The translations under genes and the position numbers were made by a program. This document shows positions 37,810-63,611 of a DNA stretch of 64,000 bases, piece by piece; positions within the stretch are counted from its first letter, which is position 1; every line of letters begins with the position of its first letter. The DNA comes from Tubiluchus corallicola (lineage: Eukaryota > Animalia > Priapulida). The notes under the pieces are model-generated. The model searched no databases and had not been told where the DNA came from. It was given only the letters and a program-made list of their open reading frames with translations. The stretch lies in contig JAQGDQ010000060.1 of NCBI GenBank assembly GCA_030141605.1, positions 496,001-560,000 of the forward strand, written 5' to 3'.

Positions 37810-37820
37810 CTAGTAACGAC
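37810..37820 (-). CDS. TRA2: TRA2 last coding exon (RRY-stop)
   Basis: tttctag|GT CGT TAC TAG completes SYSP-R-R-Y*, the canonical Tra2 C-terminus. Confidence 0.85.
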
Positions 37821-40800
37821 CTAGAAATTAAGACAATTAATTGAATACAGATCAAACAACAAGCACTTTACTTACACTCCTATATAATGCTATATCCTAT
37901 CTAATACAGTCACACAGATATACCGAAAATTAACTGTAAGAAAATATATCCAATCAATATATGATTAGAATAACGAGTAGGATTATGCATTTCTGGGCAA
38001 AAAAAAATCGATTTTACGGATCATTATAAATTTGTCTTACTCACAAATTAAGCTTAATTTGGTTCAAAATAAGTACATACATCTGTTTTCTCCTGCAGTT
38101 ATAAGTAGATTAGGAGATAACTTTGGTATAAAACCAAACGAAAGTGACTACATTTACTTTAGTGAAACAAACAATTTACAAAACAAACCTAATGCAGGCA
38201 GCCTAAAAAATGATTAACAAATTATTAATTAGTTAAAGTCCTTTTCTTGTTCAAAATCATTTGCACACAACATAACTGTTTAAAAGCTTGACAAAAAACA
38301 GAAAAAAAATGATTGTGATGCAGTGAAACAGCAGCTCTTTTGTACATTGGTGCAATAGTACATTACTAATTTGCTACCACTGTCCAAAATGGAAAGCAAA
38401 AATTTTAACAAACGAAATCAATGGGACGCAACAGAACCATCTTCCGTTCCCTTCTTTGCAAGTGAGTCTTAAAATGACAACACATTTCAATTCTTCTGAA
38501 GGCATTTCCTTCAATTGTTTTAGCTTAAATCAGGAACGCTTCTGCCAATATTGCTCGTCCCATGCCAGCTTTTGCAGGATATGTCAGCAAGACAGAATTT
38601 GGTACAATTTTAACTTGGTAACAGCACTACACCGCATAGCATTCAGGAGCTGGCTGGTAAAAATATTCTTAATATTTTACAGACTTTTGCAAGCTAAAGG
38701 TTAAACACAAAATACTTTATGAAGTTTCAATTTTACCCAAAATCAGAAAGAAAATGGTCTAACTAAGATTTCGTGATGCTTTTTCTTAGTAGCTTATATA
38801 TAAGAGGAAATCTGATGCCAAGGTGTCATTTTCGAAGAGTCTGCAACTTCATTTTGCTCGTTAAATGACACCAGGAATTCCAGCGCTTGAGTTTGGTTAT
38901 CACGTGTTATATTCTGCCGTGTAGAATTGTTTACAAACTCAATGTCACAGAAACTTTAGTGCGATTTCGCTAAGTTTCACAAGCCAAACCGAACAGAATG
39001 TTTTGGGAAAAATGCAACTTCGAGGCTTGATTTCATTCGGAAGGAAGCCGTGAAATTTAATAAAATTAGTGTCAGATTTTAAATTATGGTTAGCTCTTTT
39101 TATTAAAGAAAATTTGTTTTTATGCAAAATCTGACCTTAATGACAGAGTGTAAAACAGCTGAATAACAGTTTGAGCACAAACCATAAGCCCCTGACAGAA
39201 TAAACTCAATATGAACAATGAAGCAATCAATTGATTCTTCGGTTTGTAACATGCGTAGCGTTCCATATGTAAACAATGCAAGAACTGTGGACCATTACTC
39301 CCGAAAACGACTTTACCTCGACGCCAAACTGTCTCAGCTTCCCGGTCGTCAAGTTGCAGGTAACACGTAAAGAATTTTCCATAAATTTTTAGCCCAGGAT
39401 CTCTGGCCTAATTCTCGGCAATGAAAGGCATCAGCAAAATTTCAGGGGAGCGAAAGCAATTAGTGAATCGCAAAATTCACTGGAAAATGACTTATACCCT
39501 CATACTTACGTGGAGAATAAGAACGGGATCTGGAACGAGAGTAGCGCGGAGAATAACGTGGAGAGTAACGCCGGCTGCGATTGTACCCATATCCGCCGCC
39601 CCCTCCGTATCCACCGGAATATCCGTATCCATAATTACGACGTGGTGGCCTGAAACACGAACACATCAAATTATTAGAGACATTAATGAAATGACATCTG
39701 ACAACACTGGAACACAGAGACGGCATCCGAACACGGAGACGGCGTCCGAACACGGAGACGACATCCCAACACAGAGACGCGTCTGAACACAGAGAGGACG
39801 TACGAACAGAGAGAGACGACATCCGAACACAGAGACAACAGAACCATTGCAGCAAAAACAGAAAAAAACTTCAGTCATTGGTAGAAACTCAAAATAATTG
39901 GTCCTTATACCTGGCGGGTCTTCCCATGTACACTCCAGGAGTTGGCGTATGTGCCCGGTTGGTAATGGAAAAATCTACTCTGATACGCCGTCCGTCTATT
40001 TCCATGCCGGCTGCTTTTTCCTTTGCCTGTCAAAATAAAAGCACATATGAAACTCATAGATAGGGGCCAATGCAACAAAAACTAAACATAATAATCTTAA
40101 TCTCTATCACGAGACAAATAATTATTTTTATAAAATAATACAAGATTAAAACACGGCTGAAAGTATTAGCAAAGCTTAGTCTGATCAGGTAATCAAATTT
40201 CTTCTACAACTTTTTCACCAGGTGTAATCAATAGGACGTACTGCAATCTTCATTAAATCAACTAGTTAATGTTGTATCAAAAAAAATTTTATACACCAAT
40301 AACTATTAGCAGTCACAAGTACAGCATAATAACTTAAATTAAATACCAAGTATGGTTCTCTAACTGGTTTTCATCCCCTTCACTTTGCCAGACTGGACTG
40401 GTGTTTAACTGGATAGATGTAACACTAATTTGCAATATAGCAAACATACTGCAAAGGAGCATAGTGTTGTTTGGTACTACACTGTTTGCTGTAACCAGTC
40501 TGGGTGAATAGAGAGTCGGTGTGGAAAAACAGCCTCATACAAACTGATTTTAAAAGTGCAGTTTTTACGTATTTTTGGGGTATTTAATGAGTCTGTAGAA
40601 CTTAAGCACACGAAAAAAGGATAACCCGATGGCATGACTTTTGTTAATGATACACACTGGCCTGGCTGGATGCAGATGACATATGGAATACCTGTACCCG
40701 GTGTTGCAGGAAATCATGGCAAAACACCAAGAAGAGTTCAATGGCGAGGCAGTTGATGAAGAAACTTCTAGCTCAGAGTTTGAGCCCGCTGAAGAAGATT

Positions 40801-43800
40801 TGATTGCAAAGCAAAACATTCTTGCCATTTGACTTTGATTAAATTAAACTTCGTATTGGAACGAAAAAAAATTCTATTAAATTAGTCTGTGTGAAAAATC
40901 GATCTAACACAGACTAATTCTGATAGTGCATGTTGATAAGTTGGTTTCAAAATTAGTCTCAAAACATAATAATTACATTAAACAGTTTAGTTCTGCTGTA
41001 TCCCTAATTACAATCATTTACCACTATGTGTTAAGCAAAGATTATGAGTACAGTGTTCCCTCGCTACTTCGCGGTTCGTTTATCGTGGACTCGCTGTTTC
41101 GCGACTTTTCAAAAATATTAATGTAAAATATTTATCGCGCTATTTTCGCTGTTTCGCAGGTTTTTGCAGTACTCCGTCTAAAGTATTTTTGCACATGCGC
41201 AGTACGTATTGTACAGTACTGTATACATTTGATGAATTTTGCATAAAAAATCACAAAATGTATAAAAATATATCAAAAATATTAATTCTAACATTAAAAG
41301 AATATCATAAATCATAAAAAATTACCATTTATAGTAAATAGTGTATTTATTCAGCGGATGAATACACACCAAAAACGAAATGTAGTACTTGTGCCCTAAA
41401 ATAAGTATAGCGTCCCTACTTATCGTGGGTGGGCCTAGGACGGAATACCCACGATAAGTGAAGGAACACTGTATTACAAAACATTGGCTGGCTCTTAACT
41501 AAAAATCTACTTCAATTATGTAAAGGTCTAGCATATCAGCTTTATTTACTCTATTTCATCATGTGGCAAAAAGGTACTTACCTCCATCGCGTCATTTGTG
41601 TCTTCGAAATGGACAAATGCAAATCCTCTAGACTGACCAGACTAAAACAGTAAAACATTCATGATAATGCACAGTTGCACATGTTTAGTTCATTGCTTCT
41701 ATCAATAGCAGTGCACAAAGTATGTAAATATATATATACTTCTCTTAAGCTCTGCAGACGTTAAATTTTGTAACCGGGAATGTTTAGTCAGTTAACTGCT
41801 AGTTAAACTCCATTTGAAAATTGTCTAGCTGCGTTTTTAGTTATAAATTTCACAAGTTTTCAAAAATTGTCAAACATTTTAACATAGGTATGACAGGCTC
41901 CCCCCACCATCCCCTCTCTGCCTCTCTCTCTCGCTCGCTCTGTCTGTCTCTCTCTCTCTGTCTGCCTCTTTCTCTCTCTGTCCGTCTGTCTCTCTCTCTA
42001 CCTCCCTCCCTCCCTCTCTCTCTTCCTCCCTCCTTCCCCCTCTCTCTCTCTACCTCCCTCCCTCCCTCTCTCTCTTCCTCCCTCCTACCCTCTCTCTCTC
42101 TCTCCTTCCTCTCTATAATGCAAAAAATTAGTGCTGTAATGGGAAATCATATGGGAATGGCAATTACTACAAACACGTCAACAGGATAGTACAGTAGTAT
42201 ATAGTAGTACGTCACAGTTCATCAACATTGAAAAGCAATGAATCAAGACTGTAGTAAAATGATCACAAGACGTGACCAAATTTTGCTTTGGCAGTACTCT
42301 ATAAACTACTCACTCTGTGGTCATATATCACATTAATTTCATCAATAGGTCCATAGCGGCCGAAGATCTCTCTCAGATCCCTTTCTTCTGTGTAAAGTGA
42401 CAATCCAAAAATTCCAAGGCAACGACTCACTTCCGGATTTTCCTATAAAGAAAAAAACAAATAACTGTTTAAGCCATGGGAATTTTTACAATTTTTAAAA
42501 AGGCATTTATAAGATAGATAGATAGATTATTGACATATGGCCAACAGGGCCAATCAAAACAATAATGAACATGTCATACAATGGATAGATAGTTTATTGA
42601 CATATGGCCAACAGTGTCAATCAAAACAATAATAAACATTTCATGCAATAGATTACATACAAGTTCAGATAAATTTTTCCACTGCACTTTCTATTACAGT
42701 GTTTTGTGCTTGCATCACACAAAACAGTTTTTCATTTTCAGTTAAAGCATTAAAAGTAGGATCATACTGAGAAACTGTGTTCAACATAAAGTTATGTGCA
42801 ACATTATGTCTTGAGTAGTACAATAAAAAATGGCATTCATCTTCAACAACATTGCAGACACCACAAACATGATTTTCACATGGAATAGGTGGTCATACAT
42901 GTCTAGCAGTTTCAACAGCCAAACGAGGAGCACTAATTCTAAATTTTGTCAAGGCCCCGTTCTATCTTCAATATTCCTAACATTTCCTAATTAAGCTTTT
43001 TAACATGGCATACAAACTAAAACTACCTGGCCATTACATTGCGTCAACATCACTCAGGTACTTCCACTCAGAAAAAACATTTCTTAATTAAGCTAATTTC
43101 CTTGCAGTTTAATTCAACAAACTTCGGATACTTCCAGAATAGAGAGCAACCAGACATACAACAATGTTATTTTTCATATCCCATTTTCATGTCCGATCAA
43201 AAGTAAACATTTTAACTCCAGTAATATTCGTAAGCATTTCTGATAATTAAGTAACAGATTAAAAACTTAATTAACGGTGGGCGAGCCCAACTACTGATGA
43301 CATCACAAACTAACATAATTTTCAACAGCAAAAATATTTCATGAGCGTGTTGCACACGTTTGCAAAAGCAAAAATTGAAGTACAGTGCTAGTGTAAGATA
43401 TTCCGTGTGTTGTACTAAAACTGGGCAAGTTTTAAGATAAAAATTGAAATTTCAAATTTGCTGCTGTGCTCACCATAAGCTGTCGAACATGTGTAGTTCA
43501 TCACAAACTAACACATCTGAATTAAGTGGTACACCATCTGCGTTTTTGCAACACGTTTCCGAAATGCAGGCGCTAGTGTCTGTCTAACTAGCGAATGGCG
43601 AAATGCATGTAATGGCAAAGTTGCGTTTGTGTGTTAATATTTCTTTCACGGAAGTCATTTTCGAAAAAAATAGTATGTTTCCTTTCAATATTTTAAAGAG
43701 TAGATTGCTTTGAGCTACGGTTTAAGATTGGGTCCGATTTTGATTTAAAATTTTGTTTTTTATGCAATTCTGTACTCTCAAACAGCGATCCAGCATTCTG

Positions 43801-46800
43801 TGGCATGGCGAGTGCTAGATGTGAGGGCAAACTGGGGCATGGCGAGTGCTAGATGTGAGGGCAAACTGGGGCATGGCGAGTGCTAGATGTGAGGGCAAAC
43901 TGGGGCATGGCGAATGCTAGCTGTGAGGGCAAACTGGGGCATGACGAGTGCTAGATGTGAGGGCAAACTGGGGCATGACGAGTGCTAGATGTGAGGGCAA
44001 AATGGGGCATGGCGAGTGCTAGCTGTGAGGGCAAACAGGGGCATGGCGAGTGCTAGATGTGAGGGCAAACTGGGGCATGACGAGTGCTAGATGTGAGGGC
44101 AAACTGGGGCATGACGAGTGCTAGATGTGAGGGCAAACTGGGGCATGACAAGTGCTAGATGTGAGGGCAAACTGGGGCATGGCGAGTGCTAGATGTGAGG
44201 GCAAACTGGGGCATGACGAGTGCTAGATGTGAGGGCAAACTGGGGCATGACGAGTGCTAGATGTGAGGGCAAACTGGGGCATGACGAGTGCTAGATGTGA
44301 GGGCAAAATGGGGCATGGCGAGTGCTAGATGTGAGGGCAAACTGGGGCATGACGAGTGCTAGATGTGAGGGCAAACTGGGGCATGGCGAGTGCTAGCTGT
44401 GAGGGCAAACTGGGGCATGGCAAGTGCTAGATGTGAGGGCAAACTGGAGCATGACGAGTGCTAGATTGGGCAGACACTGTGACCACTCAGTTATTTTTCA
44501 TTACACTAAATTGAACTGTAACATGAATAATATGTTTTTACAACTATCTTCTAGACAGAACGTGTTTTCGGTATATTAAATTAGACAACGATAATATGCA
44601 AAATATTCTAGCTTCAATAAAAGTTCAATAGATGGCACTACCAGTACAAAATTGTAAGTGCTTTATGATTTATTGTGTAAATTATCAGGTGACAAGAATA
44701 AAAGAAAAATACTGGCAATTTTAACATTAAAGCTGTTCAGTACTCACTCTGTCTCCAACATGTCGACGGCGCTGAGACATCGGTGAATGACTGTGACTGC
44801 GACTACGGCTACGATAGTCTCGATTGCTGCGTCCATAATGTGGCGATCGATCACGGGAACGGCTGTACGCAAACACAAAACACAAGCAATATAAAAAATA
44901 CTCATAACGTACAGACAGTCAGTTGAAGACAAACTACATTTAAATATAGTGTAAATTTATTGTTTAGTAAATATAGTGTTTATTGGCTACGGTTACAGCA
45001 GTCTTGGTTGCTGCGTTCATAATGTGGCGATCAATTAAGGGAACGGCTGTACGCAAACAAAACAAACAATATAAAAAATACTCATAACGTACAGACAATC
45101 AGTTGAAATGAAACTGCTTTTAAATATAATTATTCAATAGGTTTTTTTTACCTCGAATATCTAAAAATTTCGAGTAAGTTATGAAAACTGGAATACCCAT
45201 AACGCTTTATCTATTTTTATCTATTAAAAATAGTTAAGGCGCACAAGTATTATTGTTCACACAATTGTTATTATTAGTTAATTGTTGTAAACATTTAACT
45301 TAAACTATTTGCTGATGTTGGAAGTGCGTACGTTAATCATTAGGATAGAAAGGATTTGAAGTAGCAAAAACAGCAAAGTCTACCAACACTGCAGTTCTTT
45401 TTATATGTTTATCTAATTTCGCTAAAAGAATTGCCATTTTCACATATTTTGCTTTGTTTAATAAAAGTGTAGAACATGCAAAGTGTGCAGGTACTTTTGA
45501 GACACCCTGTACATAAGACTTCTATTTTCCTGCGTTCACATTTTCAGTTTGCACACACACAGCAGGCGTGGTTTTCATAAAGAAGCAATCAGGGTTTTTA
45601 AAAGCACAAGAAAACCCTCAACTTACATCAAGCTTAAAAAATTCATCTTGAAATTTTATACCACTTACATACTGCCATTTTGCATACAGGGCTCGTGTCA
45701 GCAGTAATGCTGTACAAAACATGTGAGTTTAAACTTCTGCAATGACCGTTAGGCGCAGCCATTTTAATGGTAGGTCATTTGAAAAAAATTTAGATAACAC
45801 TGAGTGAAGTTTGCAAAATTATCAGAGCAATCGTAGCACACACGTCACTAAGTAAAATTTTAAATTATTGTCCATAAGATTAAAAATACGTTTTTGGTTA
45901 CTGAGTGGTGCACCCTGGAGGGTGAGTCAGCGACACTTTACCAATTGGCACGAACATCTTAAATTGTTATTTCTAGTTACATAACTCTTTCCAGAATATA
46001 AGCAAAATGCAAAGCAATACAGATTTGCATGGACAGTTTTTTGGGACATCTCCTTTTTTCCCCAGATTTGCATTTGCGTAATTGACGTCATGTAACATCA
46101 TGTCATGGCGTCGTCGCAACAGTATTGCGGAAATTGCCATAAAGTAACATAATTTTTAAGGCTACTTCAGGCACCCCTTTTCTTGTCCTTTTAAATCAGC
46201 TGCTCATACAGTCCATTCTCAAACAGCATCAATTACCCAAAAAAGGTACAACCCTAGCAGACAAGGTGGTGACGTCAAATGCTGCCCATCGCCCCCCCCC
46301 CCCCCTTCGAGAGTATTCTTCCTCTACGCCAATCAGCAAACCAATTATCTCGAAGACAACACCAAATAAGGTGGCCACTATAAGATTCAAATTAGCAAAC
46401 CTTCTGATAATAAACCTCAACTTACCTGCCATGTAAGTCTTACAATTAATAGGATGACAAAAACGCATTTAGTGTCTTGTACTTATCTGGCTATCATAGA
46501 ATCTTATTTAATTACATAATGATGCCAGTGCCTGGCCAATCCTGGCAAAACTATTGCTGCTTTCAAAGCTCAAAGTGAAAATGGCATGTAAAGAGCAAAT
46601 AATAATAATAATAATAATAATAATAATCTTTTTATTTACACGCACAGTTATAATACAATTAATTTGGAAACAAAAATGTGAAGAAAGGGCAGCGAAAGAC
46701 CAATTGGTCATCTAGTCAGCTGCCCTTTGGTTAGTGCGAACATTTTTATAGGCGCTATGCTACAGTGTATTAGTGTTAGTACTGCTTATAATAAAAATTT

Positions 46801-49800
46801 AATTGTTACGAATGACATAAAATTGATATGCTTATAACGTGTTAGTACAATTCATACACAGTAATAATAAGTGCATAATAAAAAAATGAAACTGAAAAGC
46901 AAAAGGAACAAAAGAAAGTTAAGGATCAAAAATTTTTATTACTTGGTGACATCATACATAGTTTAATTGAATTTGGCTAAATACTGTCAATGAACACTAC
47001 ATGTATATGAGAAATGTCTAGAAATAGCACTACATTGGTTAAATTAGGAGCCAGTAAAAAAGAAGCAGTCTAATACACAACATATCATATCATAAATATT
47101 TTCCAGCAAGCTCTAGGATTATTTCTCCACAACCAAAAAAACTCCAAGTACACTTTACAGCAAGATTTGTTCAGTTAGACAATAATGAGACTATTGTATA
47201 AGAAAGCAGGTGATAGGATTGACGGAACTTCAGATCTTTGTACAAATGCAAGCACTAGGACCCTGGTTCAAAAATTTTTGCACTAATTTACATAAACCCT
47301 AGCATAAATGTAGTAAAAACCTTAGTCATTAAAGTTTAAGTGATGCATAGGAGACCATCACAAACAACACTACAAATCTACATGATCTTAACATTGTACA
47401 AAAACCACCCTAGCCTAGGTTTGTAAGTAAGCAAGAACAGTGTTAATCCTAAAGCACATTGAACACAATGATGTGGCGTAGGTCTAATGTATTCAACAAT
47501 GCATACTTATTGCTAATTTTAAAAATTTGTCTTACTGTTATGCTGACCTAGGTGACCCTATTTAAACGAAAACACGCACATTCAACTTGTGGTAATTATT
47601 GTGCTTAATTTTTAATTATACAAGGAACATCACGAACGTCATATTTAATGTCTTTACGCACTTAATTGTCATAGACCTTCGCAAAAATTTTAATGCACCC
47701 TATTTTTAAAAGTGGATTTGTCACCTAATTTCATCAATAAACTCATTATTATTATTATTACAGTGGAACCATATTCCTTTCGGTCACAAATGCGTCCTTT
47801 ATACTCACTGGGCTGACACCACCCACTGATCCCCCCCCCCATACCGACATTGAATGCGCAATATGAGAAATGTCTAGTCCCTATAGCAGAAATCAGCTGA
47901 ACATGCTACAGACCATCGTCCAGTAATTAACAACATTGAAAAAAAGAAACCCAGCATTCTACCGGCATAAGAATTGCGATGGCAGGCAGTTTTCCAGGAA
48001 ATTGACCAACCATTGACTATCCGATACTAATTATTAATCTCATATTAATAGTTTCACTTCAGTTTTTGCGGTCATCTCTGCAAAATGCCTAAACCAAGAC
48101 GTATAGCACAAAACTAACACTGTCATTGGATTCACAGACCTTGAAGACTGAACACTTAAATTTAAAATTCCATTTAAAATTAAGATATGAACCAAAGAGT
48201 AGTTACAGCAAATACAAGTGACGCCATTACTGCAATAAATGGCAGTGATGAAAAGCAAAATGCTGTAAAATTTTACAACGATCATGTAGCAGTATTGTCC
48301 AAAAAATGTAAAGGACTGAAAATGAAAAGCCACGGCGAGTAGCAGAGTGGAGAGTGCTGCTGTAAATATGATCTGAAGCACCAACTTTTTGCTCATGCCA
48401 TTTCGTTAAAGGAAAGGACAAGCCCTCTAAAAAGTTTAGCTTATTTCAATGTTTGCGAAAAATAATATGCCTTTGTAATAAAAGTGATATAAGCACTTCG
48501 TGTAATTAGTACAATTACTTTAAAGTCGTGATCATTTCGTATTACAACAAATGGGGCAGAACGAATTGTGGCCGTGAGTCGACGACTACCCGAATGTGGC
48601 AATTGTTAAAGTACCACATGGTAGTCTCATGCTGCAAGTTCAGACTGTGCACTCTCAAACACTTTCGGCACTGGATATTTGTACAGATCTTCCAAAAACA
48701 CTCTGCGGCACTTATCGTTCATTGCATGCCGTATAGACTTGCGACGCGACATGTCCTCCAACGTTCCCGGATACTCTATCTCTAGCTGTGCCAAAATGGC
48801 ATTGACTCGTGCAGGATCCAACTTGTTCTTCATGATCTGGCCCATTTTTGTGAGGGCCACCCCTCCCTTCAAGGTGCTTGTGCGAAGCTCCTCGCGGCTA
48901 AAAAGAAGCCCCATAAGTTTGAGCACAAAAATATTTGGAGAACCGCGAGATCGATCATATGCCGTATCATACTCCACTTTGGAAATTTCAAACTGATTAT
49001 CAGTTGTAGCACCTATTACTACAGTCTTATCGATGAGCATTCCATATTTTGGTTCACTTGGCACGAGAAATTCTGGCACGATGTTCTTATTGCGAAGACG
49101 ACAGAAGTTGGCAGAAAAATCTTGCACCATATTTGGGTCACTTTCTGTGGTTACAACACTTGACTGGTCGAAAAACTCAACTGGTTGTGATCCAGAAACC
49201 GGGACCTGCCGTTGCGACCAACAATCGTGACTTTCGATTTCAGATTTCATAGCCACTTGCCCCGAAGACCACTCTTCAACTGCCAAAACAGTATTTGAGT
49301 GTTTGTCCGACATAGACGTACCTTGACTAGATTCTGTTGAGTCTTGCAGCTGGTGACTAAGTTGATTCTCAGCTATAGCATGTTGCATCGAGGCTCTTGA
49401 TGACTGTGCCGTTACACTTGATTCTACAGTTTGTTCCGTTCCACTTTCAAGTTCACCATCACTTTCATCAATTTCTACAATTTCAGTTATGTAATTATTG
49501 ACATCAACCGTCTGGGACGTGCTGGAGTCGGCGGCATTAGATTTACGTTTCTCATTTGAAGATGTCGATGCAGCAGAATGTAAAATGGGGCTGTGGTTCG
49601 CAATGCGCTCAGCTGTGCGACGGCTTAAATATGCTCTAGCTGCGGCAAATCCTTCACACGTAGCCACAGGAACTGATAGCCGATCAAGTCCATTTGGTAA
49701 AGAATGCCGAGGACTTAGCGAAGCCAGCACACCTGTGGAATTTTCTACTCGTTCATAACCTGTCTTTGGTGATTTACAAAAGCCAGGGATCTTCTTCCTT

Positions 49801-52800
49801 AATAAAGTACTCAGCTCACGAATCTCTTTTAGCACAGTGACATTTTGCTGTTCCATTCTATCTAATCGTTTCTCTATTTCAGCTAATCGATCGCCCGACG
49901 GAGCCGACTGTGCCAACTGGGGAAGCTGTGATTGTAAAGTATGCAGTGACGGATGCGTCAAGAGGACTGTCAGAGCTTGCTGCAGCTGTTCATTACCAAG
50001 GTTACTAGACATTCTGGATGATCCGGATCTGTAACAAAGTAAAGATCCGTATAAGGAAAATGACATGAAGCATGGCAAATGAATGCACTAGCTTCATGAC
50101 AGAGTGCCACAACAGCAAAATTCTAAAACCTTGAAATTCAGTACTTTAGCTTTGCGTTGCCTTATCATGCAAAAGTGACTCTAGAAGTGAACATTTACAG
50201 CAAACTCTCACAAGCTCTTGCCACATGAGATCTTGGAAAACATACCAGACCAAACCAGGCACTACACCTGATAGATGATATAGTCATTCCAAGACCGTGA
50301 CTTAGTATATACCACTACGGAAAATGCGATATCTTTTAACTTGAAAATTGCAAAACCATTTGGAAAAACAATGTTGGAGAATTATCAATACTGAACTAGT
50401 AAAAAATCAGCTCCCACTGACATACACTTCAAATGAAAGGCTAGGCCCGTTTTACAGGTCTTCGTTAACAATACAAGAATAAAAAAACGAAACCTAATTC
50501 ACCTATGAGTAATGGCATTTGCATAGCACAAAGTTTGACCACATTCTGCTTAGACAAACTGACAGAATGTCAGTCTAGCAGGATGGCTAAAGCCGCAAAA
50601 TGCTTACATACAAATCAGTTTGCCATACAGACAGTTAAAAAAATGTGTCCACACAACTTTCACACAGGAAACATCCTGCTTTCTGCAGGAGAGAAACACT
50701 TGTCTATTATACTCACTACATCAAAACTGGAGGAATTCCTAATGGAAAAGCCAACTCTGGATCAACATTCATTGTATTTTAATGTACATTTAAAAATAGT
50801 ACCACATAATATACGCACTTAAAACGCCTTAAAAATGTAAAAGAAAATGCCGTTCACTCAGAAATTCAGCTATTCTAGCTAAGTAAGTCTTTGTGTTCAA
50901 AGTGTTTATGTCAAAATTAGTTATCGGATCAATCTCCCATAACTTTACATACAAAACTCATATAGTTTTAATCCACAGAAATATACCTCAAAATCTGTAC
51001 TATCACACACGATACAATTACAGATAAGCATGGAATTTTGCGAGCATACAGCAAGTGCTGTTCGAGTTACTCAGCTTTATAGACTTTTAATTTGTTAAAA
51101 TAATTATTCTCTTACTTTGTCGAGGTTAACTTACTAGCCGACTTGGCAATTACTGTATTATAATCAGTAACTGGTTTTTAGTACACTGTGGGCAACAGGA
51201 TTCATCAAAAAGAAAAAAGTTAATTTTCCACCTAAGGTTTTAGACCAGGGGTGTGCAAATTGCGGCCCGCCGAGAGAATTTGTGCGGCCCGCGAAGAGAT
51301 TTGTCAACCTAATGAAAGTGTGACCCGGTCGATTAATTGAGTGTATCCAGCTGAAGTCCGTGCCACGATCCCAAAGATAGTGCGGTTAGTTTTTTCTACT
51401 AGATCGGATGCCATTAACCCTTACAAGACGGTTGTAGCTTAATGTCACTGTACTACAACAGACTGTGTGATACACAGTACTAATATGCATTGTAATGAAA
51501 TTACCACTATCTGTCCTGAAAGTAGAAATATATGGTTTGTAATATAAATTTTAATAACTTCTAAAATAGTTTCTTGAGTGTAGTAGTAATGATGTACGCA
51601 GGTCGGATGCAAAAAAATCCTTATTAGGCCTTTCTGCATTTGGCTCCTTGATCAAACTGCCTGTGGCCCGCAGGAATTGCGGGAAAGTTTAATGTGACCT
51701 GGCTAGTCAGATAATTTGACCACTCCTGTTTTAGACTATTTGTAGCTGATATTACAAATCACAACTGCAAAAAGCTCCAGCAGGTGGCAGGATAACTCTT
51801 TATATTGCATGGTAGAGCGGATGACGTCATTTCTCGTTCAAGATGAACACGCTTGAGGTGATTGCAACTTTAAATTAATTTTACTAATTTACACAAGCAA
51901 TTTATCACAAATTCACTGCCGAAACTTTTTAACATTTTTCTCAAATATTAAAATGTCCCAAGAGATTTGTCTTTTGTTTTAAAGCAAAATGTATCAAAAA
52001 TTCACAAATATTTTCCAAAAATAACATGCTATTTGGCTTCAGTAAGGTCTATTTTGTTTGATAAGGAAAGCACACAATTCACTAGCCTACCTTGTTCGCT
52101 CAAGGATCTACTCGCAGGACTGCACCGGTTTACTGGTTTGGTAAACAAAACGTAATTTACAGACAGTGATGCAAACAATTCACTTCATTTTGAAAAGATT
52201 TAAATCAATAATCAGTATTAACTAACCTTCCAAGATTCTGTAAAGTGAAGTGAACAAAGCATTTGCATGCGAAAACTTCTCCGAGCTCCAGATATAAATT
52301 ATTAATAATATGCTAATCAAACTGTTGAGTGTGGTAAAAACAGCTCGATTAACTAGAATTAGGCCTAATTTGTAATCAAACATAAACAAGCAGACAAAAC
52401 TCACGTGGAATAGCAAATGTCAGTCACATGTAAGAAATGTATAAGGAAATTGTTTTCTCTGCCTTATCATTGTTGTGCAAGTGAAACGACAGTAGACTCT
52501 TACTATCCCTTATTTTGATGTGTTCTAAAGGAAATGATCAGTTTTCTCCTTAAAAGAAAAGCAGACGATTGTGTAAACATTAGTTCAGAATAAAGAATGC
52601 TCTAAAATATTGAAAACTACAATAGCTTTTTTTAATCAAAGCTTAGATTAAATAATAATTTCGTCGGATACTCAAATTGCGTTAAACTTTCAAAGCTACG
52701 CGTGGCTCAGTGTATCTACTAAGATTGGCAACGGCACCTTTTTGTCACATGCACGTGGCTGACAAATAGAAGGCGGTACCATGATAACCATGATCATGAA

Positions 52801-55800
52801 CTGAAGTGTTAGTTTCTGACGTCATATGACGTAGAGCCCATTTTCGTGACATCACGCGTCTAAACAGTACTATAAAACTTGACGTGTAAGGGAAGATGCC
52901 TGTTAATGCACAAACTGTGGTTAGTTTCGAACGTAAGCAATAGGTGTGTTCAGTTGCCGTCAATTAACTTTCTAAGCTAATTATTCAAATATAAGAAACA
53001 ATTGCTAACTTTTATAGGAAAGAAAACATATATTTTGCACAGTAAACTAAAATGAGATTGAGTATAAACAATCGTCCAGTTTTCCTTTAAAATCGCGTCT
53101 TGAGATGTACGATAATGCCTATGAGATGCTTCAGGCTATCTACCTCTAGCGTACATCCCAGCAGATGGAGGGACATACGTGTAATTCTAGTATAGCAGAG
53201 CTCTCACAGACATACTTAAATGCGCAGCCTGTGTGTTAGGCTTCATCTATGTGCGTATTTATTAATTTATCAATTAATGTTCACATAATAACTCTCATTT
53301 ATCTTTTATGATTTACTGTGTGCAACTAACTTTATGTGAACTTAGAAGCAAAACTGAATAGGCACAAAATAAAACTTGAAAAGCAGCAAAAGAGCCACCT
53401 TCTGGAAACTAACATCAGCGCCGAATGCATAAACATATATAGAGTGTTCAAACGGCATGCGACTAATACCAAATGCAACTACACTTCTTACACAAGATAC
53501 TAAGAAAAAAGATTCACAGCATGTCACTCAGTGAAAGCTACAATAACAGCATCATGTCTACTTTTATGCCCAAGCGTTTTTTCCCTTCATCCAGAAAAAT
53601 TAAAATTTCTTACGGGCAAGCTTTCCCAACTAAAAAAAAGAATATGTGCTCAACAAAATGTAAGAAACGATCTACAATTATAAAAAAATAGAAGTTCTAT
53701 CTCACACGAGTTAAATTATCTGTTTTTCCTGACCACTTTACCAAATGAAAAATTTATCAAGTTTTAACTCTACAGTATTAACTTTTATCAGGCACTTTCT
53801 TGCTCTAACTGACACATTTTAAACAGCGACACGCCTGAATTACTCTTATACTCATGCATAGAAAACCAAATTAAACAACAATGAACTTATCAGAAATAGT
53901 TTGGGCTGTTATGCCATGGCTACTTAGAGAAGAACAATGCAAAAGAAATCTCGTATCACTCATACTGCAGATTACATATTGCATCTGAGCCAATAGAAAG
54001 TGTAGAATTTTTCCTAATATGAACAAAACAGCTTCACAGAATGTTTAACTACGTTAACAACTAATAACATTAACAGATAAGCAATTCTCAAACGTAAATT
54101 GGAAGGCATGTAAATTCACACCATAAACCCAAAATGGATTGTTAAGTCGTCGAAACAAACAACTTAAGCTTACTAATTATTATAGTCTAGATTGTAGTTT
54201 ACAATTACAAAATCATCAATCAAAATTAAATAAATTAACATATCTTGTTCCTACTAATAATAATTACTAATTGTGTCACATGACAGAACCCTACAGTAAA
54301 GGCAACTATAACCAAAAAGTATTTAAGTGTACTTTGTACTTTAGTTCATAATAAACACATTATTTAGCATAACACTAATCGAATTTGTTGTAACTATAAT
54401 CACAGTTACTGAAAACGCCAAAGACCCAAATGTTTCCGTCATTCTTAACTTATTCATCACGTAATTTCCGACACCGCTGTAGAATCTTAACTTTCGGCAA
54501 CGACAACTTGGCAAGCCAATGAACATACCAGCAACAAAGAACAAATGGAGGACGTTACTTTCGCTTGCTAAATTCACCCAGATAATTATTGTTAACCTTT
54601 GGTATCGGAAACTTGTGCATGTCCTCCAGAAATATTCGGCGGCATTTGTTGTTCATTGCGCGTCGAATCGCTTTGCGACACGGTACCTCATTCATTGTCC
54701 CGGGGTACTCTATCTCCAGCTGCGCCAAGATGGCATTCACTTTAGCTGGCTCCAACTTATTCTTCATGATCTGTCCCATTTTAGTAAGAGCCACGCCACC
54801 TTTGACAGTGCTCGTCCGAAGCTCCTCGCGTTTGAAAACAAAGTCCATTAACTTCAGCACGAATACGTTAGCATTTCCTCGAGTCTGGTCATAAACACGA
54901 TCGTAGTCTGCTTTCGGCACTGGCAAGGGGTTATTTGTTGTGGCACCAATAAATACTGTATCATCAATTAGTATGCCATACTTCGGTTCATCAGCTTTGG
55001 ATTTGGAGTTGTTAAAGAAAACTTCTACAGGTGTGTCCTCAAAAGAGTCTTCGATCTCTATACCAACAGCATTACTAAGCTGTTTAAGTAATCGAGACCC
55101 TGACAAAATCACGGGGCCTCTGGAACTGTCAGCATCAGCTGCGCGATAACCTTTACCTTTTCCTCGTGAAGTACTTGTACTATTTCCGTTACGCTTGACA
55201 CCGGAAACAGAATTGCTTTGGCTTTGTGTTTTAGCAGATGCCAAGTGCTGATTCTTTTTCCTCTTTTTCGTTGAAAAAATAGAACGTACTCGACGTTTCT
55301 TTCCTTTCCGGATTTTTATGTGAGTTGATTCCATGTTTGGCACACCTGTTTCTGCAGCAGTATCCTCTTCTTGATCAACAGTCAGTTCTACTTCAGCAGC
55401 AGTGAAAGTTTTAAGGGTCTGCTGAGCTAATGAATCAGAAACAACTGGCATATCTTTAGACGTCAAGTCTTTACTTTTCTTGAATGACGATGCAGATGAG
55501 ATATTTGGCACTTTATTTGATTCAAATTCTAGTTGATTATTTATATTGCACTCAGCTGTTTCACCGCCTGGTTCTTCTATGATAGGCTCAGTTTCTATCT
55601 CTGGTTGTTCAATTATGGGATTACTTTCATCAACCTTACCTGTGCAAGGTTCCACGGCATGTCCTTCAACATCGACGTTTCTTCCAGAACTGTTTTCATC
55701 AATGTTGACAACACAAGGAGAAGTTGCAACATTCTCCAAAGTAGCTAGATTCGACACTACATCACGGAACTCTTCCGACTCGCGTCGTCGAGTGGACTTT

Positions 55801-58800
55801 GCGGTTACCGTGTAACACGTCGTTAAAAACGTACTCAACGCGCGAAGTTCTTTCACCATTGCTACAGTTTGCTGCTCTACCCTGTCTAAACGCTTCTCAA
55901 TTGACGTAAGAAGGTCAGGAGACAAGGGGGTAACTTGTGGCGACTGGAAAGACATTGGAGTTGTTACAGCATCCGCTGTTTGTTGAAACTGTTCACTATC
56001 GGGGCAATTAGAATGTTCGGAGAGTCGGGATCTGCAAGAGATGAAAGATCCATATAAGGATTTTGAGCATCACTCCTCACAAGCTTAGCACTATTTTAGC
56101 CATGAAACTGCTTAGTTGGAGACGTAATTCAAAACTTCACGGGTTCCAATAATTATTAAAGCTGGCTGTCCAAGGTGCTACTTGACAATGTACTGTTCAT
56201 TCATTTTTTATGTGAAATACTGGAACACAGCAATAGCTGGGTCAAGAAAGTTAAAATTTTTATTAAGAAACAACAACAAGTATGACCACAAATGTTATAA
56301 TGTATTTAGAATCAATTTAAGTCAAAAACATAACAATGTTTGCACAAAAGCACACTTATTGTCTAGTACAAGAAACAAATCATTATTTTAATCTTATATA
56401 ATGAATAGAGCTAGCGACTATCTGGAAAGAACCTACTATGTGAATAGTTTTTATATTTAAAAGCTACTTATATACAGTAAAAAATACCTTAACACAAATT
56501 ACACAATAATACATAAAAATATATTTATGCTGTTTTGCAAGCTTAGGCAAAAGAATCATTTTACTGCATTTAAAAGGAAATTCGACTTTGACAGAGCTGA
56601 ATGCCTCGACACTGTCTGTCAGTTTAATGCACCATTTCCAAAACAAGCTTACTTAATTCAGTCGCTGTCTAGCATACATTACCTTAGTAAAGATAACACT
56701 TTGATGAAAAAATAAATATTTAACATTATAAAAATTGAGGCTAAAAATCTACTGCACAGAATTCGAAACAATATCACTGGAAAATTAATATTAACTTATT
56801 TATACATATAAAAGTCCATTTCCATAAAACATTTCAACATCACTAATTTTCTATGCATAAAAAGTGACTAATGACTACATTGCAAATGACTCTGGCAACA
56901 ATACAGCAATAACATTTCTCTAAATGTAGACAAGGGAATGTGCATGTCAGACAAGCTGGCAGAAAAAATTATACAAATGCTGTTCACAAAACCAATTATC
57001 TAGCTACTGGAAGTCGAGAGTGGAAATTAAACCCATCATAGAACCTGATAGCAAAATAACAAAGTTTAGTTTCAACAAACAAAAGTCTATGTGCGACGCG
57101 GGTTAATTCTGACAACAAAAGGCTTGCTTGGGTCGCATTGCTATATGTACTCTTTTATAGCATCATCTCCATACCCTGCTACTTAAAATGGTTTGCGACT
57201 ACCTGTTGGAGTGCTTCACTTTTCTGGGCAGAAAAACCAATACCTGTTCTGCACAGCTAAGATGAAAATTTTCACAAGTGCAGATGTTAGTTATTTTTCT
57301 GGCCAGTGGATAAGTTCTAGCGTGCTTGTAGTTGACGCATCTGGCTGGCACATGATTTTTGATGCAAATTCTTTACCATGGAAAGATGAGTTAAGTGTCG
57401 TTTGGCAGCAAAAAGCACAGTGTTGCTGTTGTATGGCCTGTTTTCCTCAGCTTCATTACTATTACATGGTTTACAGAGCTGGTCGAGCCACAACAAGTGT
57501 GTTGTCGTTCCATTTCAGTCAACTGTTTGTACGTTGCCGTTGCGGTCTACACGAATGCTGCTTAACTGAACCACTTGTTGTCGTTCCATTTCAGTCAACT
57601 GTTTGTACATTGCCATTGCGGTCTACACGAACTGGACCACTGTTATGTACAGACGCTATGCAATTAACCAAAGATTACGCCAAAATGAAAAATCTAATGA
57701 GTTATCAATATTTCGGTTCTAAATGCAGAGAGAATTTTTGCATCTCTGCAGAGACTTTAATAAACTGTTAATAAGTTGTAAATCTATGTGCATCATATGG
57801 TTTCTACACACAGATCTACAATTAAATCATCTGTCTAACTTAATCATATTTTTAGTGCAAGAACCACAAGTGCTGGCGAGCAGCTAAGAAACAAATGAAT
57901 ATAACAGCAGAAAAAGGAGCACTTGGGCACTTGACGTAACTGCAAACTCCACAAGTGAAGTTGTGCAGTGTCCAATAAATCAGATCCAGAAAGGAATCAG
58001 ATTTTTTTTTCTGATTTTCCTGAGCCGAAATGAAACAAAGCCAAAACTATAATAATCCTAACGGAAACATATCCAAAAGTTCACTAATCCTAACCGAAAC
58101 AAAACCAAAACTGCACTTAACTTAAGTCTACAAATGAAACTAAGCAGACACTAATTGCAATTGTAATAATCTTATTGTATAAAATGATCTGAGAATCTGA
58201 GAGACAATTTTTTGCGAGATATTGCACTGTTTGGCAAGGCAGAGGGATGCTAGCATTTTGTGAAGAGGGGTGATGTAGAAGAGAACCACAGAGAAAAACT
58301 GCTAGCCAAGCCAAGTGCCCAATAAATCATTACAGCATGTGAACTGATCACTACAAAAACAAGCAAATGTTATTTCACATCTCAATTTAACATAGTTTCT
58401 TACTGGTGCTGTGAAGATGTAATAAAACGCGGCGGGCATTTACGCCAGGTAGGTAAACATTGAAACATCAACTAAACAGCTAGCTGGTCAAGTTCCTAGT
58501 CAGAAACCCAAAGAGACACTTAAGTGTTTTACCTGCATATCAATACACACATCTAGGCGTGGCTACAAAAAGTCATTGTTAAATTTCATTCATGTGACGC
58601 GGTATATGGTCTTACAATAGAGGGTAGTACACGACCTTTCACTAGGGGGCACTAAAATAACAATGTAGTAGTACAGAACAATTTATTACATGGATAGCGC
58701 AAATCTATCATGTCCTCAGAATTTAGCGTGAAAACCTCAAGTATCTTGCTTGTGCCATCAATGGCAATAATCACAATGAAATGGTCAGGGTAAGATTACT

Positions 58801-61231
58801 CAAAATATTGTTTGAATAAGATCAGCTGAATGTTAATACAGCATAAGGTAAGAATAAAAGGAATATACAAATCCTAGTAAGAGAGAAGGCAGTTTGGGGT
58901 TCTTCTTCAAAACGTTGTTACGTAGGTCTGGAAACCCTTGACCCAAACCAAATTGAATCCCAGTCAAATTTCGTGCCTTAATCTGAGACACATTCACTTT
59001 GGCCCAAGCACTGTCAGCTGTTCCATAAAAGCAATTTTTAGCCAATAACAAGTAACTCAAGAAGAAATAAAGTGATATTACATTAGTCACGGTAATATTG
59101 AAGAAAGGAACAAGATTGATTTATAAACAAAGTAAGATAACAAACGATCTCCAAACTAAACAGCTAAATGGCATGAATAAACTTAATGAGCATTATTACG
59201 TTTATAATCGCACCAAAAATCTATAAATGCACAGAAAATAGTTGCAAATTTATGCTTCATTACTACAAATGCAAGCAATTCACCTAACAAGAACTTGATG
59301 CAAACTTTTCGAACAAATAACTACTAATGTGACTAATTATTCCCTCACTTCACTCAAAAAACATCAAACTAAACCTAAAATACTTAAAAACAATCAACAG
59401 GTGCAATTATAAAAAGTCACACTATAAATTAAATAGTTTCACATCTCAAACACTTAGCCTAATTCTCCAGGTAACTAACCCAACTTTTCATTAGCTAAGA
59501 AACTGCCAAGCTTATCTAGAATTCGGCTAAATAACAGAATTATCTCAAATCATATTTTGCACAGCTATCATGTTGATATAGAATTTTCACTTACAAGTAG
59601 TCAAGTACAGCGAGGAGGCGTGACTACCGTGTAATAATTGTAATTAGGTATTTCTTGCATTTTTAACCTATGACTGACTACAGTTTATAAAACATACAAA
59701 AACGTGTGCTTACCTTCGTGAGCTGAAAAAAAGAAAAAAGACAACATCAGCATCAAAATACATTCAGTAAGTAACAACAAAAAATATGGCTGTGCAAATT
59801 AAAGGAAAGCAATAGTCAAATTTAGAACATAGCTCAAAATAATGTATGGACTAAAGTACAGACAAGAAAAATATTGTCTTTTTAACAAGCACAGCTTTAC
59901 AAAAATGCACTACATGAAAAATAAGCAATGTATTGGATCCATCAGAAGGACTCGACCCAGTCATGACATAGACCCAGGATGACAACTAAGCCACACGAGT
60001 GCATACAGCTTGAAATCATGAATTCAAAAGCACAAAACTTATGCTGTTGCGAATTTTACATGGAAATGTCAAGTTTCACCTTTCACTCTTATATAAATGT
60101 ATGAAATGTTAATAAACGTTATGGGAGTTCACGAAAATCGAGAAACTTTTGGAATTTAGCCTATCAGTGACCTAACTGTTAGACGTGCTCGGGGTAGCTA
60201 ATTAAATTTCTAACTTACCGGTATTATTTAACTATCAGATACATGTGTGTGGAAAACGTCCGGAATTCGACTATCATGCTTTTTCAGTTTATTCACACAT
60301 TCTGAATCTATATCTATTGAGGTTCACTTGATGCAAGCTCATCGCTCTACGTTATTTTTGATGGAAATAATCAACAAAAAACTGAGGCCTGTGCTGTGCA
60401 GACTAAAAAACAATCTTAATAGAACTGCCATTGAAATTTGCCATTGTTTTTGTCTGATTCCTACACAAACACCTTAGCAATAGCAAGAAAGAGTGGCCCG
60501 TTAATGGCTTTTCAAGATAATAATCTGGAGCTGATAACGAAAGTAACTGCAATAAAATGGCCGCTCACAGGAAGGAGTTTAAAAATATGAGTCTTAATTT
60601 TTAGCCAGTAAATGAGAGAATATTTGATGTTAACCGGACATTTGATGCAATCAACTTAAAGGCTAACCTTGACATTGCCGATTTACGGACGGTTAAATTA
60701 ATTTGCATGTACACATTTCGTAATAGCAGTGTTCTCTCGCTACTTCGCACTTCGTTTATCGCGGACATTTTTATGAACATTTAAGTAAAGTTTTTTAAAA
60801 GGTACATGTACAGTATGGGAAAAGGTTATTAATGTATAAGAGTGTGGGGAGGGTTAATAAGGGCTTAAAATAATGTATAACTACTAAGATAAGTATAGTG
60901 TCCCTACTTCGCTGATATTCACTTATCGTGGGTGGGCCTGGAACGGAACACCCACTTAAGTGAGGAAACACTGTATTACAGGTAAAAATTGTATATTTTA
61001 TATCACATATTTCAGGCATAGCCTGAAAAATCATTGCACTTTCCTTTAAATAATATTAAGACATCCAGCTGCAAAAATTATTAAAGAAGCAAGGATAACC
61101 AACATAAAAAAATGATAAATTTTACGTTCCTCTCTAATAACGCAGATACGTACTAGTATCTAGACTTGCGTCCTCTAGAACGGGAACGGGAACGGCTGTA
61201 ACGTGACCGACGTGGCGTTCTCGATCTGCTT
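37810..61231 (-). CDS. TRA2: Transformer-2 homolog (RS-RRM-RS splicing factor), 5'-partial
   Basis: Exons on -: 61154-61231, microexon 59714-59722, 44748-44862, 42314-42442, 41582-41641, 39911-40026, 39510-39649, 37810-37820. All are GT-AG with consistent phases. Diagnostic motifs: [40 protein letters not shown]1 [50 protein letters not shown]. The start codon was not found in the window. Confidence 0.93.
39510..39649 (-). CDS. TRA2: TRA2 exon, Gly/Tyr linker and RS2
   Basis: cag|[46 protein letters not shown]|gtaagt. Confidence 0.92.
39700..39840. repeat. Degenerate ~19-22-bp tandem repeat in a short TRA2 intron
   Basis: Recurring GAACAC(A/G)GAGACG(G/A)C(A/G)TCC. Confidence 0.75.
39911..40026 (-). 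CDS. TRA2: TRA2 exon, end of RRM
   Basis: cag|[38 protein letters not shown](R)|gtataa. Confidence 0.95.
41051..41471. mobile_element. Tigger-like MITE, family C
   Basis: TA|CAGTGTTCCCTCGCTACTTCGCGG...AAGTGAAGGAACACTG|TA. A shorter copy lies at 60727-60973. Confidence 0.8.
41582..41641 (-). CDS. TRA2: TRA2 exon, RNP1
   Basis: tag|[20 protein letters not shown]|gtaagt. Confidence 0.95.
41910..42113. repeat. CT-rich low-complexity tract (GA-rich on the TRA2 sense strand)
   Basis: Mosaic of (CT)n and (CCCT)n. Confidence 0.9.
42314..42442 (-). CDS. TRA2: TRA2 exon, RRM start (RNP2)
   Basis: tag|[43 protein letters not shown]|gtgagt. Confidence 0.95.
42512..42975 (-). mobile_element. LINE 3' end with C-terminal zinc-finger remnant and (TCTA)n tail
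   Basis: The - strand reads [17 protein letters not shown]...[15 protein letters not shown]. The tail region 42512-42640 is tandemly duplicated. Confidence 0.7.
43802..44465. repeat. Minisatellite, 34-bp unit, about 19.5 copies, inside a probable TIR element (about 43575-44480)
   Basis: Unit GCATG(G/A)CGAGTGCTAGATGTGAGGGCAAACTGGG. The flanks AGTGTCTGTCTAA and TTGGGCAGACACT form an imperfect inverted pair. Confidence 0.93.
44748..44862 (-). CDS. TRA2: TRA2 exon, end of RS1
   Basis: cag|[38 protein letters not shown]|gtgagt. Confidence 0.95.
44985..45130 (-). repeat. Tandem duplicate of the TRA2 exon acceptor and first ~60 exon nt, with an in-frame stop
   Basis: Matches about 44805-44950. 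The acceptor GCGTACAG is intact (AG at 45047-45048) and is followed by C CGT TCC CTT AAT TGA. Confidence 0.85.
45603..46190. mobile_element. Kolobok-like family K copy
   Basis: AGCACAAGAAAA...TTTTCTTGTCCT with TTAA flanks; collinear with 14137-14801. Confidence 0.75.
48627..50028 (-). CDS. BEN-domain protein B (coiled coil + C-terminal BEN); single large exon, possibly an alternative last exon of TRA2
   Basis: Open frame 48627-50078. Coil [32 protein letters not shown] motifs [22 protein letters not shown]...[10 protein letters not shown]...[10 protein letters not shown]. Acceptor TTACTTTGTTACAG has its AG at 50029-50030, phase 2; an in-frame ATG follows a few codons later. Confidence 0.88.
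51246..51728. mobile_element. hAT-type MITE (inverted copy of 2167-2653)
   Basis: CAGGGGTGTGCAAATT start and a decayed right TIR, with flanks GTTTAGAC/TTTTAGAC. The interior is nearly identical to the reverse complement of 2167-2653. Confidence 0.9.
54555..56031 (-). CDS. BEN-domain protein A (coiled coil + basic NLS + C-terminal BEN); single large exon, possibly an alternative last exon of TRA2
   Basis: ORF 54555-55955 stays open up to the acceptor TTCATCTCTTGCAG (AG at 56032-56033, phase 2). Coil [29 protein letters not shown]; NLS-like [18 protein letters not shown]; BEN motifs [22 protein letters not shown]...[10 protein letters not shown]...[10 protein letters not shown]. Confidence 0.88.
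57500..57631. repeat. Short tandem duplication (~76-bp period)
   Basis: TGTTGTCGTTCCATTTCAGTCAACTGTTTGTAC...TTGCGGTCTACACGAA occurs twice. Confidence 0.85.
59714..59722 (-). CDS. TRA2: TRA2 9-nt microexon
   Basis: Long pyrimidine tract TCTTTTTTCTTTTTTTCAG|CTCACGAAG|GTAAGC. It is frame-preserving and adds Ser-Arg to RS1. Confidence 0.75.
60727..60973. mobile_element. Tigger-like MITE, family C, short copy
   Basis: CAGTGTTCTCTCGCTACTTCGC...AAGTGAGGAAACACTG|TA. Confidence 0.75.
61154..61231 (-). CDS. TRA2: TRA2 RS1 exon
   Basis: tgtgtag|[28 protein letters not shown]|gtacgt; phase 2 at both ends. Confidence 0.9.
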
Positions 61232-63557: not shown

Positions 63558-63611
63558 CTGGAATATGTGAAGTCCTCATCAACATCATCATCATATGACA
63601 GTGATATAGAT
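63558..63611 (-). CDS. Candidate 54-nt TRA2 cassette exon (acidic)
   Basis: tttgtttcag|A SISLSYDDDVDEDFTYS AG|gtcgtt. Phase 2/2 fits the RS1 exon, but the donor is weak. Confidence 0.35.

Follow-up and report, generated by a model that had tools for sequence, protein, structure and literature searches.

The 64,000-nucleotide (nt) stretch of the priapulid Tubiluchus corallicola described here (contig JAQGDQ010000060.1, positions 496,001 to 560,000; its whole length is called the window) carries on its minus strand a gene whose predicted exons make it tra2. One intron of this gene holds two long reading frames, A and B, each ending in a BEN domain. Both lie between a predicted microexon and the exon at 44862, and the AG at which each would be spliced is embedded in a sequence element common to the two copies. 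The exons of tra2 are listed below (a slash marks a splice junction); the start of the gene probably lies beyond 64000.

63558..63611, minus strand: possible further upstream tra2 exon, uncertain; 54 nt, in frame, weak donor
61154..61231, minus strand: predicted tra2 RS1 exon; 78 nt, phase 2 at both ends; donor predicted
59714..59722, minus strand: predicted tra2 microexon; 9 nt, strong pyrimidine tract, AAG/GTAAGC donor; required for an open frame into either BEN exon
44748..44862, minus strand: predicted tra2 exon ending RS1; its acceptor would compete with the BEN acceptors; covered by an X2 contig with 7 differences in 116
39911..42442, minus strand: predicted tra2 RRM exons (42442-42314, 41641-41582, 40026-39911); RRM_1, TRA2B and tblastn matches
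37811..39649, minus strand: predicted tra2 RS2 exon (39649-39510) and last coding exon (37820 to the stop); X2 junction

Joined from 61231 onward, the predicted exons give an open RS1-RRM-RS2 frame of 218 codons that ends SPRRY. The RRM_1 domain was detected in the RRM exons, all three of which are matched in tblastn searches with two Tra2-like proteins, and the RRM exon protein search gave 4 matches among 6 candidates. In the PDB, the first RRM exon has its four best matches in human TRA2B (E about 3e-15 to 7e-15), and other RRMs score ten orders worse. In run X2, which is RNA by guess and about 94% alike to the window, one contig joins 37818 to 39508 across a GT-AG intron, so that the last tra2 intron is seen spliced; the contigs of this run lie on two tra2 exons and on this one tra2 junction.

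A 34-nt minisatellite (43798-44466; 19.7 copies, 95% matches) lies in the tra2 intron before the RRM. The acceptor of exon 44862 and the beginning of that exon recur in tandem as a degenerate copy at 44979-45069 on the minus strand (84% over 83 nt, 184 nt apart); its CAG at 45046 is intact, five codons are read before an in-frame stop, and AATAAA stands at 44984-44979. This copy is a possible decoy or poison acceptor.

The predicted BEN exons A and B

The two frames and the exons predicted for them are the following.

54555..56031, minus strand: BEN exon A, putative alternative last exon; open for 491 codons, with no Met before codon 26 and the BEN domain at its end
48627..50028, minus strand: BEN exon B, putative alternative last exon; open for 466 codons, with no Met before codon 6

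Both are old, intact BEN-domain paralogues, with 70% identity (93/132) over their final 132 residues and 47% over 64 residues close to the start. No third BEN copy was found in the window by tblastn. The Pfam BEN scores (20.8 and 21.8) fall under the gathering cut-off of 23.2. The Atlas assignment of the BEN domain stands at 0.93, and all 12 matches in a PDB sequence profile search are BEN domains, with 17-23% identity to known BEN proteins. The structure model of exon B shows a BEN fold (predicted local distance difference test, pLDDT, 91.8); the top 15 Foldseek rows listed for this model are all BEN, with BANP, NACC1, BEND6, Insv and Bsg25A on top and a best template modelling score (TM) of 0.61/0.75. 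Near its start, exon A has a segment that, judged from sequence, is coiled-coil-like.

Among 7990 scored candidates, one match (P0001) was obtained, a relative of A that is 70% identical over its whole length. A B-like relative, P0002, was also found (2/87 candidates matched B residues 320-460); the searches with the A and B proteins each covered only about 256-860 residues. The representative protein search gave 55 matches, 2 of them close; ten of the 55 were looked up, and four came from echinoderms and a hemichordate, all distant. In a BEN tree of 16 rows, 12 of them outgroup rows chosen from top matches, A, B and P0001 grouped at 74/83, and a grouping of B with P0002 was not rejected (p-AU 0.25). 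Scans for related loci (alignment A2) gave 596 metagenome, 181 viral-contig and 88 prokaryote-genome pattern matches, none of which was confirmed, and the motif pattern had no match in metagenome contigs. The distant relatives P0040, P0047 and P0049 carry this BEN subfamily together with Tudor, NAP and BTB domains; fusion to other N-termini is thus frequent.

At 55640 on the minus strand, 392 nt into exon A, stands a strong internal donor, CAG/GTAAGG. Spliced as a cassette through this donor, exon A would shift the frame and bring a stop within the first RRM exon, which may represent a poison form. Dispersed repeats lie in the spacer that separates A from B (50950-53550); a piece of about 500 nt in it (51245-51699) has an inverted copy at 2200-2654 (94-99%) and very high depth in run X1, which behaves like DNA from this species or a very close one (0-3 differences over long pieces).

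The acceptor element shared by A and B

The minus strand reads in each copy, in this order, CCTTATA, one variable base, GGATCT, a 12-nt loop and AG/ATCC. GGATCT-N12-AGATCC is matched at 50025-50048 and 56028-56051 and, with at most one mismatch allowed, at no other site in the window; two matches were reached in 0 of 100 shuffles. As the copies are paralogous through one duplication, the two matches represent one origin and not two events. The parts of the element are as follows (bp, base pairs).

56044..56060, minus strand: conserved intronic block of acceptor A (-29 to -13); predicted branch-point A at 56055, 5' arm GGATCT at 56051-56046
56028..56051, minus strand: predicted hairpin A; stem of 6 bp, 10 pyrimidines among the 12 nt of the loop, 3' arm holding the acceptor AG (56033-56032)
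50041..50057, minus strand: conserved intronic block of acceptor B; predicted branch-point A at 50052, 5' arm at 50048-50043
50024..50049, minus strand: predicted hairpin B; stem of 7 bp, 9 pyrimidines among the 12 nt of the loop, acceptor AG (50030-50029)

An initial annotation of this DNA had placed both BEN acceptors in such a hairpin, with the AG in the stem, the pyrimidines in the loop and a seventh, flanking C-G pair in B, and had described the stem and CCTTATA as kept, the loop and the neighbouring intron as diverged. This anatomy was recovered in full, including the seventh pair, which A lacks. The annotation had left the host gene, tra2, unnamed, although it is this gene that suggests what the element may be for. 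In an ungapped comparison of A with B around the AG, identity is 7/7 in CCTTATA, 0/1 at -21, 6/6 in GGATCT, 7/12 in the loop, 2/2 in the AG and 4/4 in ATCC; it is 13/27 beyond ATCC on the exonic side and 5/17, 6/15, 10/30 and 8/30 upstream of the block. Between -300 and -30 the two introns align no better than expected, the local alignment being matched by 307/500 shuffles and the global one by 250/500.

The shared block is wider than the stem, with 16 of 17 bases identical (-29 to -13, counting -29 and -14/-13). Across the 132-codon BEN block, four-fold sites are identical in 11/41 cases, which is chance (27.5%). Because 16/17 bases of the acceptor block have been kept while four-fold sites are saturated, the 17-base element is, by this comparison, real and under selection. 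The probability of at least 13 identical bases in 14 is 5.5e-7 at chance identity, 2.5e-4 at 45% and 8e-3 at 60%; the limits of the block were drawn after it had been seen, and the margin is judged to be wide. A short and recent gene-conversion tract, rather than selection, might have made the blocks alike, as the paralogues stand in tandem 6 kb apart and P0002 may lack the block. The identity, however, is interrupted by a loop with 5/12 bases different, and since a single tract would have copied the loop as well, such an origin is exceedingly improbable. Run X1 shows no difference at either hairpin among those listed, which proves nothing.

Most simply, CCTTATA upstream of GGATCT is the branch point. 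An A of the yUnAy type stands at -24 in both copies, presumably in that role as the consensus would have it, and the 17-base block is likely to consist of this branch point and a hexamer complementary to AG/ATCC. The pyrimidine share is like that of the other tra2 acceptors. AG-free zones of 39 and 57 nt lie upstream, and in each copy the AG is the sole one between this zone and the conserved coding start. The initial annotation had regarded both acceptors as functional splice sites, a view that gains from synonymous saturation, the AG-free zones, the branch-point A, the phase and the protein conservation ahead of the first Met (the last two set out below); the AGs are very probably real acceptors. 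A U12-type intron, for which an RTATCC-type donor and a TCCTTRAY-type branch site are the consensus, was rejected: no RTATCC occurs on the minus strand between 64000 and 56031, and neither block fits CCTTRAY.

Alternatively, the block might be translated from a transcript left unspliced, as coding sequence or as part of an upstream open reading frame (uORF). In the BEN frame both copies spell SLYGS, their one difference being synonymous, and P0002 has SLRASVCCRS there; a second frame gives uORFs of 21-22 codons ending at the same place; B has an in-frame ATG 14 codons upstream, and a look-alike ATG in A is one base out of frame. Six degenerate codons are nevertheless all identical (P about 0.003 from the BEN-block rates), and A has an in-frame stop at -39 with no AG or in-frame ATG between stop and block, so that a coding role is very improbable.

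Both BEN acceptors are in phase 2, like the acceptor at 44862. With the RS exon and the microexon spliced on, the frame is open for 520 (A) and 495 (B) codons and in both cases reads on as R-S. If the microexon is left out, with the donor predicted at 61154, a TA/A stop arises at either BEN junction, and Tra2 itself stays in frame. Since the phase-2 acceptors are in frame with the upstream RS exons and the microexon, the BEN frames are probably alternative last exons, and their acceptors would probably be joined to tra2 coding exons. Protein segments conserved ahead of the first Met point to a translation start upstream of the junction. In A, which has no Met until codon 26, the segment before it matches P0001 at 16/22 positions and B weakly (21/2000 shuffles as good); in P0002, the junction is followed by 79 residues without Met, and this stretch matches B (18/43, score 75, 0/2000 shuffles as good). 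At the junction P0002 reads C-R-S, compatible with YAG/A in the same phase.

The BEN frames could also be separate nested genes that start at a Met of their own, the AG serving a non-coding leader exon, an intronic promoter or a trans-spliced leader. This would suit the Met at codon 6 of B and that of P0001 at the place of A codon 4, the lack of an RS-BEN protein among the 58 retrieved and the position of the nearest AATAAA/ATTAAA, 0.9-1.3 kb past the stops. A, however, has Leu where P0001 has its Met, the Met-free segment of P0002 is conserved, and both acceptors stand in tra2 phase and read on as R-S; nested genes are improbable. Weighing against a junction with tra2 are the RS-domain N-terminus found in 0/58 of the retrieved BEN-family proteins (calls on unspliced or partial contigs) and the fact that the fusion is assembled from predicted exons only. 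No source of RNA was listed for 48600-56200, and among the matches listed no X2 contig lies on a BEN exon, where a part without cover is no evidence.

Predicted pairing over the acceptor AG

In predicted folds of four segments around each acceptor, the stem pairs have probabilities of 0.35, 0.89, 0.88 and 0.88 in A and 0.94, 0.89, 0.20 and 0.93 in B. The loop is predicted to be about 0.7 unpaired and the acceptor AG 0.03-0.04, and only 9/200 random hexamers hide the AG equally well in A. Both arms, which form perfect stems over the AG, have been kept, including a synonymous exonic C, while 5/12 loop bases and the position flanking the pairs have changed; conservation on the exonic side ends exactly at the last paired base (+4). 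The conserved hexamer, moreover, carries GGA, which is of no benefit to a pyrimidine tract.

Several observations weigh against a hairpin and the reading built on it. The predicted energies of the 24-mers are weak (-5.9 kcal/mol for A, -5.5 kcal/mol for the core of B), in B 99/200 random hexamers hide the AG equally well, and the best and longest segment of B folds in another way than the proposed hairpin. The folding check suggested with the initial annotation gave a divided answer, with z-scores of -0.13, -1.33 and +0.74 for A (no better than shuffles in 3/3 segments) and of -0.98, -2.85 and -3.04 for B. The seventh stem pair is present in B only, and a compensatory change between A and B was looked for and not found. 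A perfect stem of at least 6 bp over the AG occurs at 125/3708 YAG sites (3.4%), and at 18/359 of those with a pyrimidine-rich upstream region. The acceptors of the microexon, the RS exon and the first RRM exon of tra2 are also predicted to have a paired AG (0.65-1.0). Both arms are RGATCY words, so that their two GATC cores give 4/6 pairs free. If, finally, the first 28 residues of P0002 are read-through intron, GGATCT and CCTTATA fit no back-translation.

The P0002 peptide can be aligned with a loop 3 nt shorter (best 12/15, 239/1000 shuffles as good). In an unchanged register it permits a single compensated stem of 6 bp, whose arms would have to be GCTTCT and AGAAGC with 9 nt of loop between them; as some stem is possible in 53/60 shuffled peptides too, this is a prediction and not evidence. 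Both arms being invariant, a comparison of A with B cannot separate structure from recognition of sequence. The initial claim of a selected RNA structure or binding site thus holds as to selection, the synonymous sites being saturated; RNA structure may be the thing selected, but no covariation was found. The odds that a masking hairpin is the selected feature are about even.

The same exons could be read with the block acting as sequence, as an extended branch point with a protein-binding hexamer or two GAUC words, the complementarity being incidental. The missing covariation, the weak energies, the self-complementary GATC cores and the share of YAG sites with such a stem by chance all suit it, as does conservation that extends 9 bases 5' of the stem. 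It leaves aside that exonic conservation stops exactly where the 3' arm ends and includes a synonymous base, and that the hexamers GGATCT and AGATCC differ as pairing requires; on balance it is unlikely, if by no means far-fetched. At the DNA level, the inverted repeat might be bound by a dimeric factor, perhaps by the BEN proteins encoded here. It is a perfect one, and BEN-solo proteins are described as binding palindromes as homodimers (PMC4281564); the sites given there, however, are contiguous palindromes and not half-sites 12 bp apart. As the repeat coincides exactly with the acceptor anatomy and the one-sided CCTTATA is left unexplained, a DNA site has a very slight chance.

Further pairings are predicted that are not common to both copies. 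A second hairpin takes up the branch-point 7-mer of A (unpaired 0.07; 56053-56080, minus strand), whereas that of B is free (unpaired 0.92); in B the AG can alternatively pair with exon sequence further downstream (50000-50035, minus strand). No Rfam match at the gathering score was obtained in the window. In Dscam a shared selector pairs with one distant docking site; for a pairing of this type, the best duplexes in 954 segments (-13.4 and -14.9 kcal/mol) were no better than those of control segments (-15.8 and -14.3 kcal/mol), and it was rejected. Editing of the acceptor AG by ADAR was set aside, since the stem is too short by what is generally known of such substrates.

The reading preferred here, held tentatively and at somewhat less than even odds, is that the BEN frames are alternative last exons in a tra2 intron and that their shared 17-base signal combines a branch point with a hexamer pairing over the AG. 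It starts from the identity of the gene, two intact frames, a block under selection and acceptors in a common phase. After the branch point at -24, the hexamer would pair over the AG, and if this 6-7 bp hairpin forms in vivo, standard 3' splice-site recognition suggests that it would hide the AG from U2AF35 and leave the pyrimidine loop mostly free. The proximal acceptors, if used at all, would be weakened, the probable direction of the effect, and most transcripts would splice on to the RRM exons. Where the hairpin is opened or out-competed, a transcript would end in exon A or B and give, through the proposed fusion, an RS1-coiled-coil-BEN protein without RRM in place of Tra2. One shared signal would let a single cue control both exons. 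A wider version, in which the 'off' branch of tra2 has been made productive, diverted transcripts giving RS1-BEN through two gates (the hairpin over both acceptors and the 9-nt microexon), is rather doubtful; if true, a single locus would trade a splicing regulator for chromatin factors with an RS domain and a DNA-binding domain. Feedback by Tra2 is conceivable. AGAA was counted 16 times in A (11.5 expected from synonymous shuffles, 39/500) and 14 times in B (11.2 expected, 96/500); as these counts are not clearly raised, they lend Tra2 autoregulation no support.

Elsewhere in the window, a single long open reading frame with a pentraxin domain (7029-8108, plus strand; E 1.3e-19) and a leucine-rich repeat exon of the F-box/LRR type (26158-26478, plus strand) were seen.

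Comparison with known systems

The BEN proteins BANP, BEND6, Insensitive, Bsg25A, NACC1 and BEND3 are like exons A and B in profile and fold, and none of them is known to us as an exon of a splicing-factor gene. In mod(mdg4), BEN is found as one of many 3' ends; no paper on a tra2-BEN arrangement appeared among those listed from the open-access literature. The gene tra2 is a core and conserved regulator of splicing and sex determination whose alternative exons, as far as known, are poison exons that do not code. If the reading is right, the BEN exons of its RS1 intron, being coding, would show such an autoregulatory slot recruited for new proteins with RS and DNA-binding parts.

The poison exons of TRA2B and TRA2A are likewise alternative exons early in a tra2 gene that remove transcripts from the productive pool, but they are non-coding cassettes degraded by nonsense-mediated decay (PMC12469348), whereas the BEN exons are long, coding and terminal. 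In SRSF10, also an SR-family gene, the early alternative exon 3 is autoregulated, carries its own poly(A) site and draws transcripts away from making the full protein (Meinke et al. 2020, PMC7244321). That exon is non-productive and depends on competition between the major and minor spliceosomes; the tra2-BEN exons have a conserved coding sequence of about 470-490 residues, a BEN domain included, and, unlike in SRSF10, no minor-type donor was found upstream of their acceptors within the window.

Control by structure at a 3' splice site is known from the SAM (S-adenosylmethionine) synthetase gene, in which a stem-loop of about 30 nt, the target of METT-10/METTL16, spans the site and controls its use (Mendel et al. 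2021, PMC8208822). A METTL16/METT-10 substrate was rejected for the BEN acceptors: the nonamer UACAGAGAA/UACAGAAAC, which that report gives as required in the loop, is matched at 6/9 positions in B and 5/9 in A, and the AG is in the stem. Alternative acceptors masked by a stem, and a terminal exon balanced by one, have been described for Atrophin and Nmnat of Drosophila (Raker et al. 2009, PMC2724269). The pairing there is between longer-range boxes and was proven by compensatory mutants; in tra2-BEN it is a predicted local stem of 6-7 bp at two paralogous exons.

In conclusion, the masking hairpin would be a new instance, as yet unproven, of a known device. Paralogous acceptors with saturated synonymous sites have provided a natural footprint that marks a 17-base control element. 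Should the hairpin be incidental, an ordinary conserved acceptor is left and the exon layout keeps its interest. Compared with the systems above, an RS1 intron of tra2 that harbours two old exons coding for BEN domains, perhaps gated by a microexon, would be a new layout and the more interesting part of this locus.

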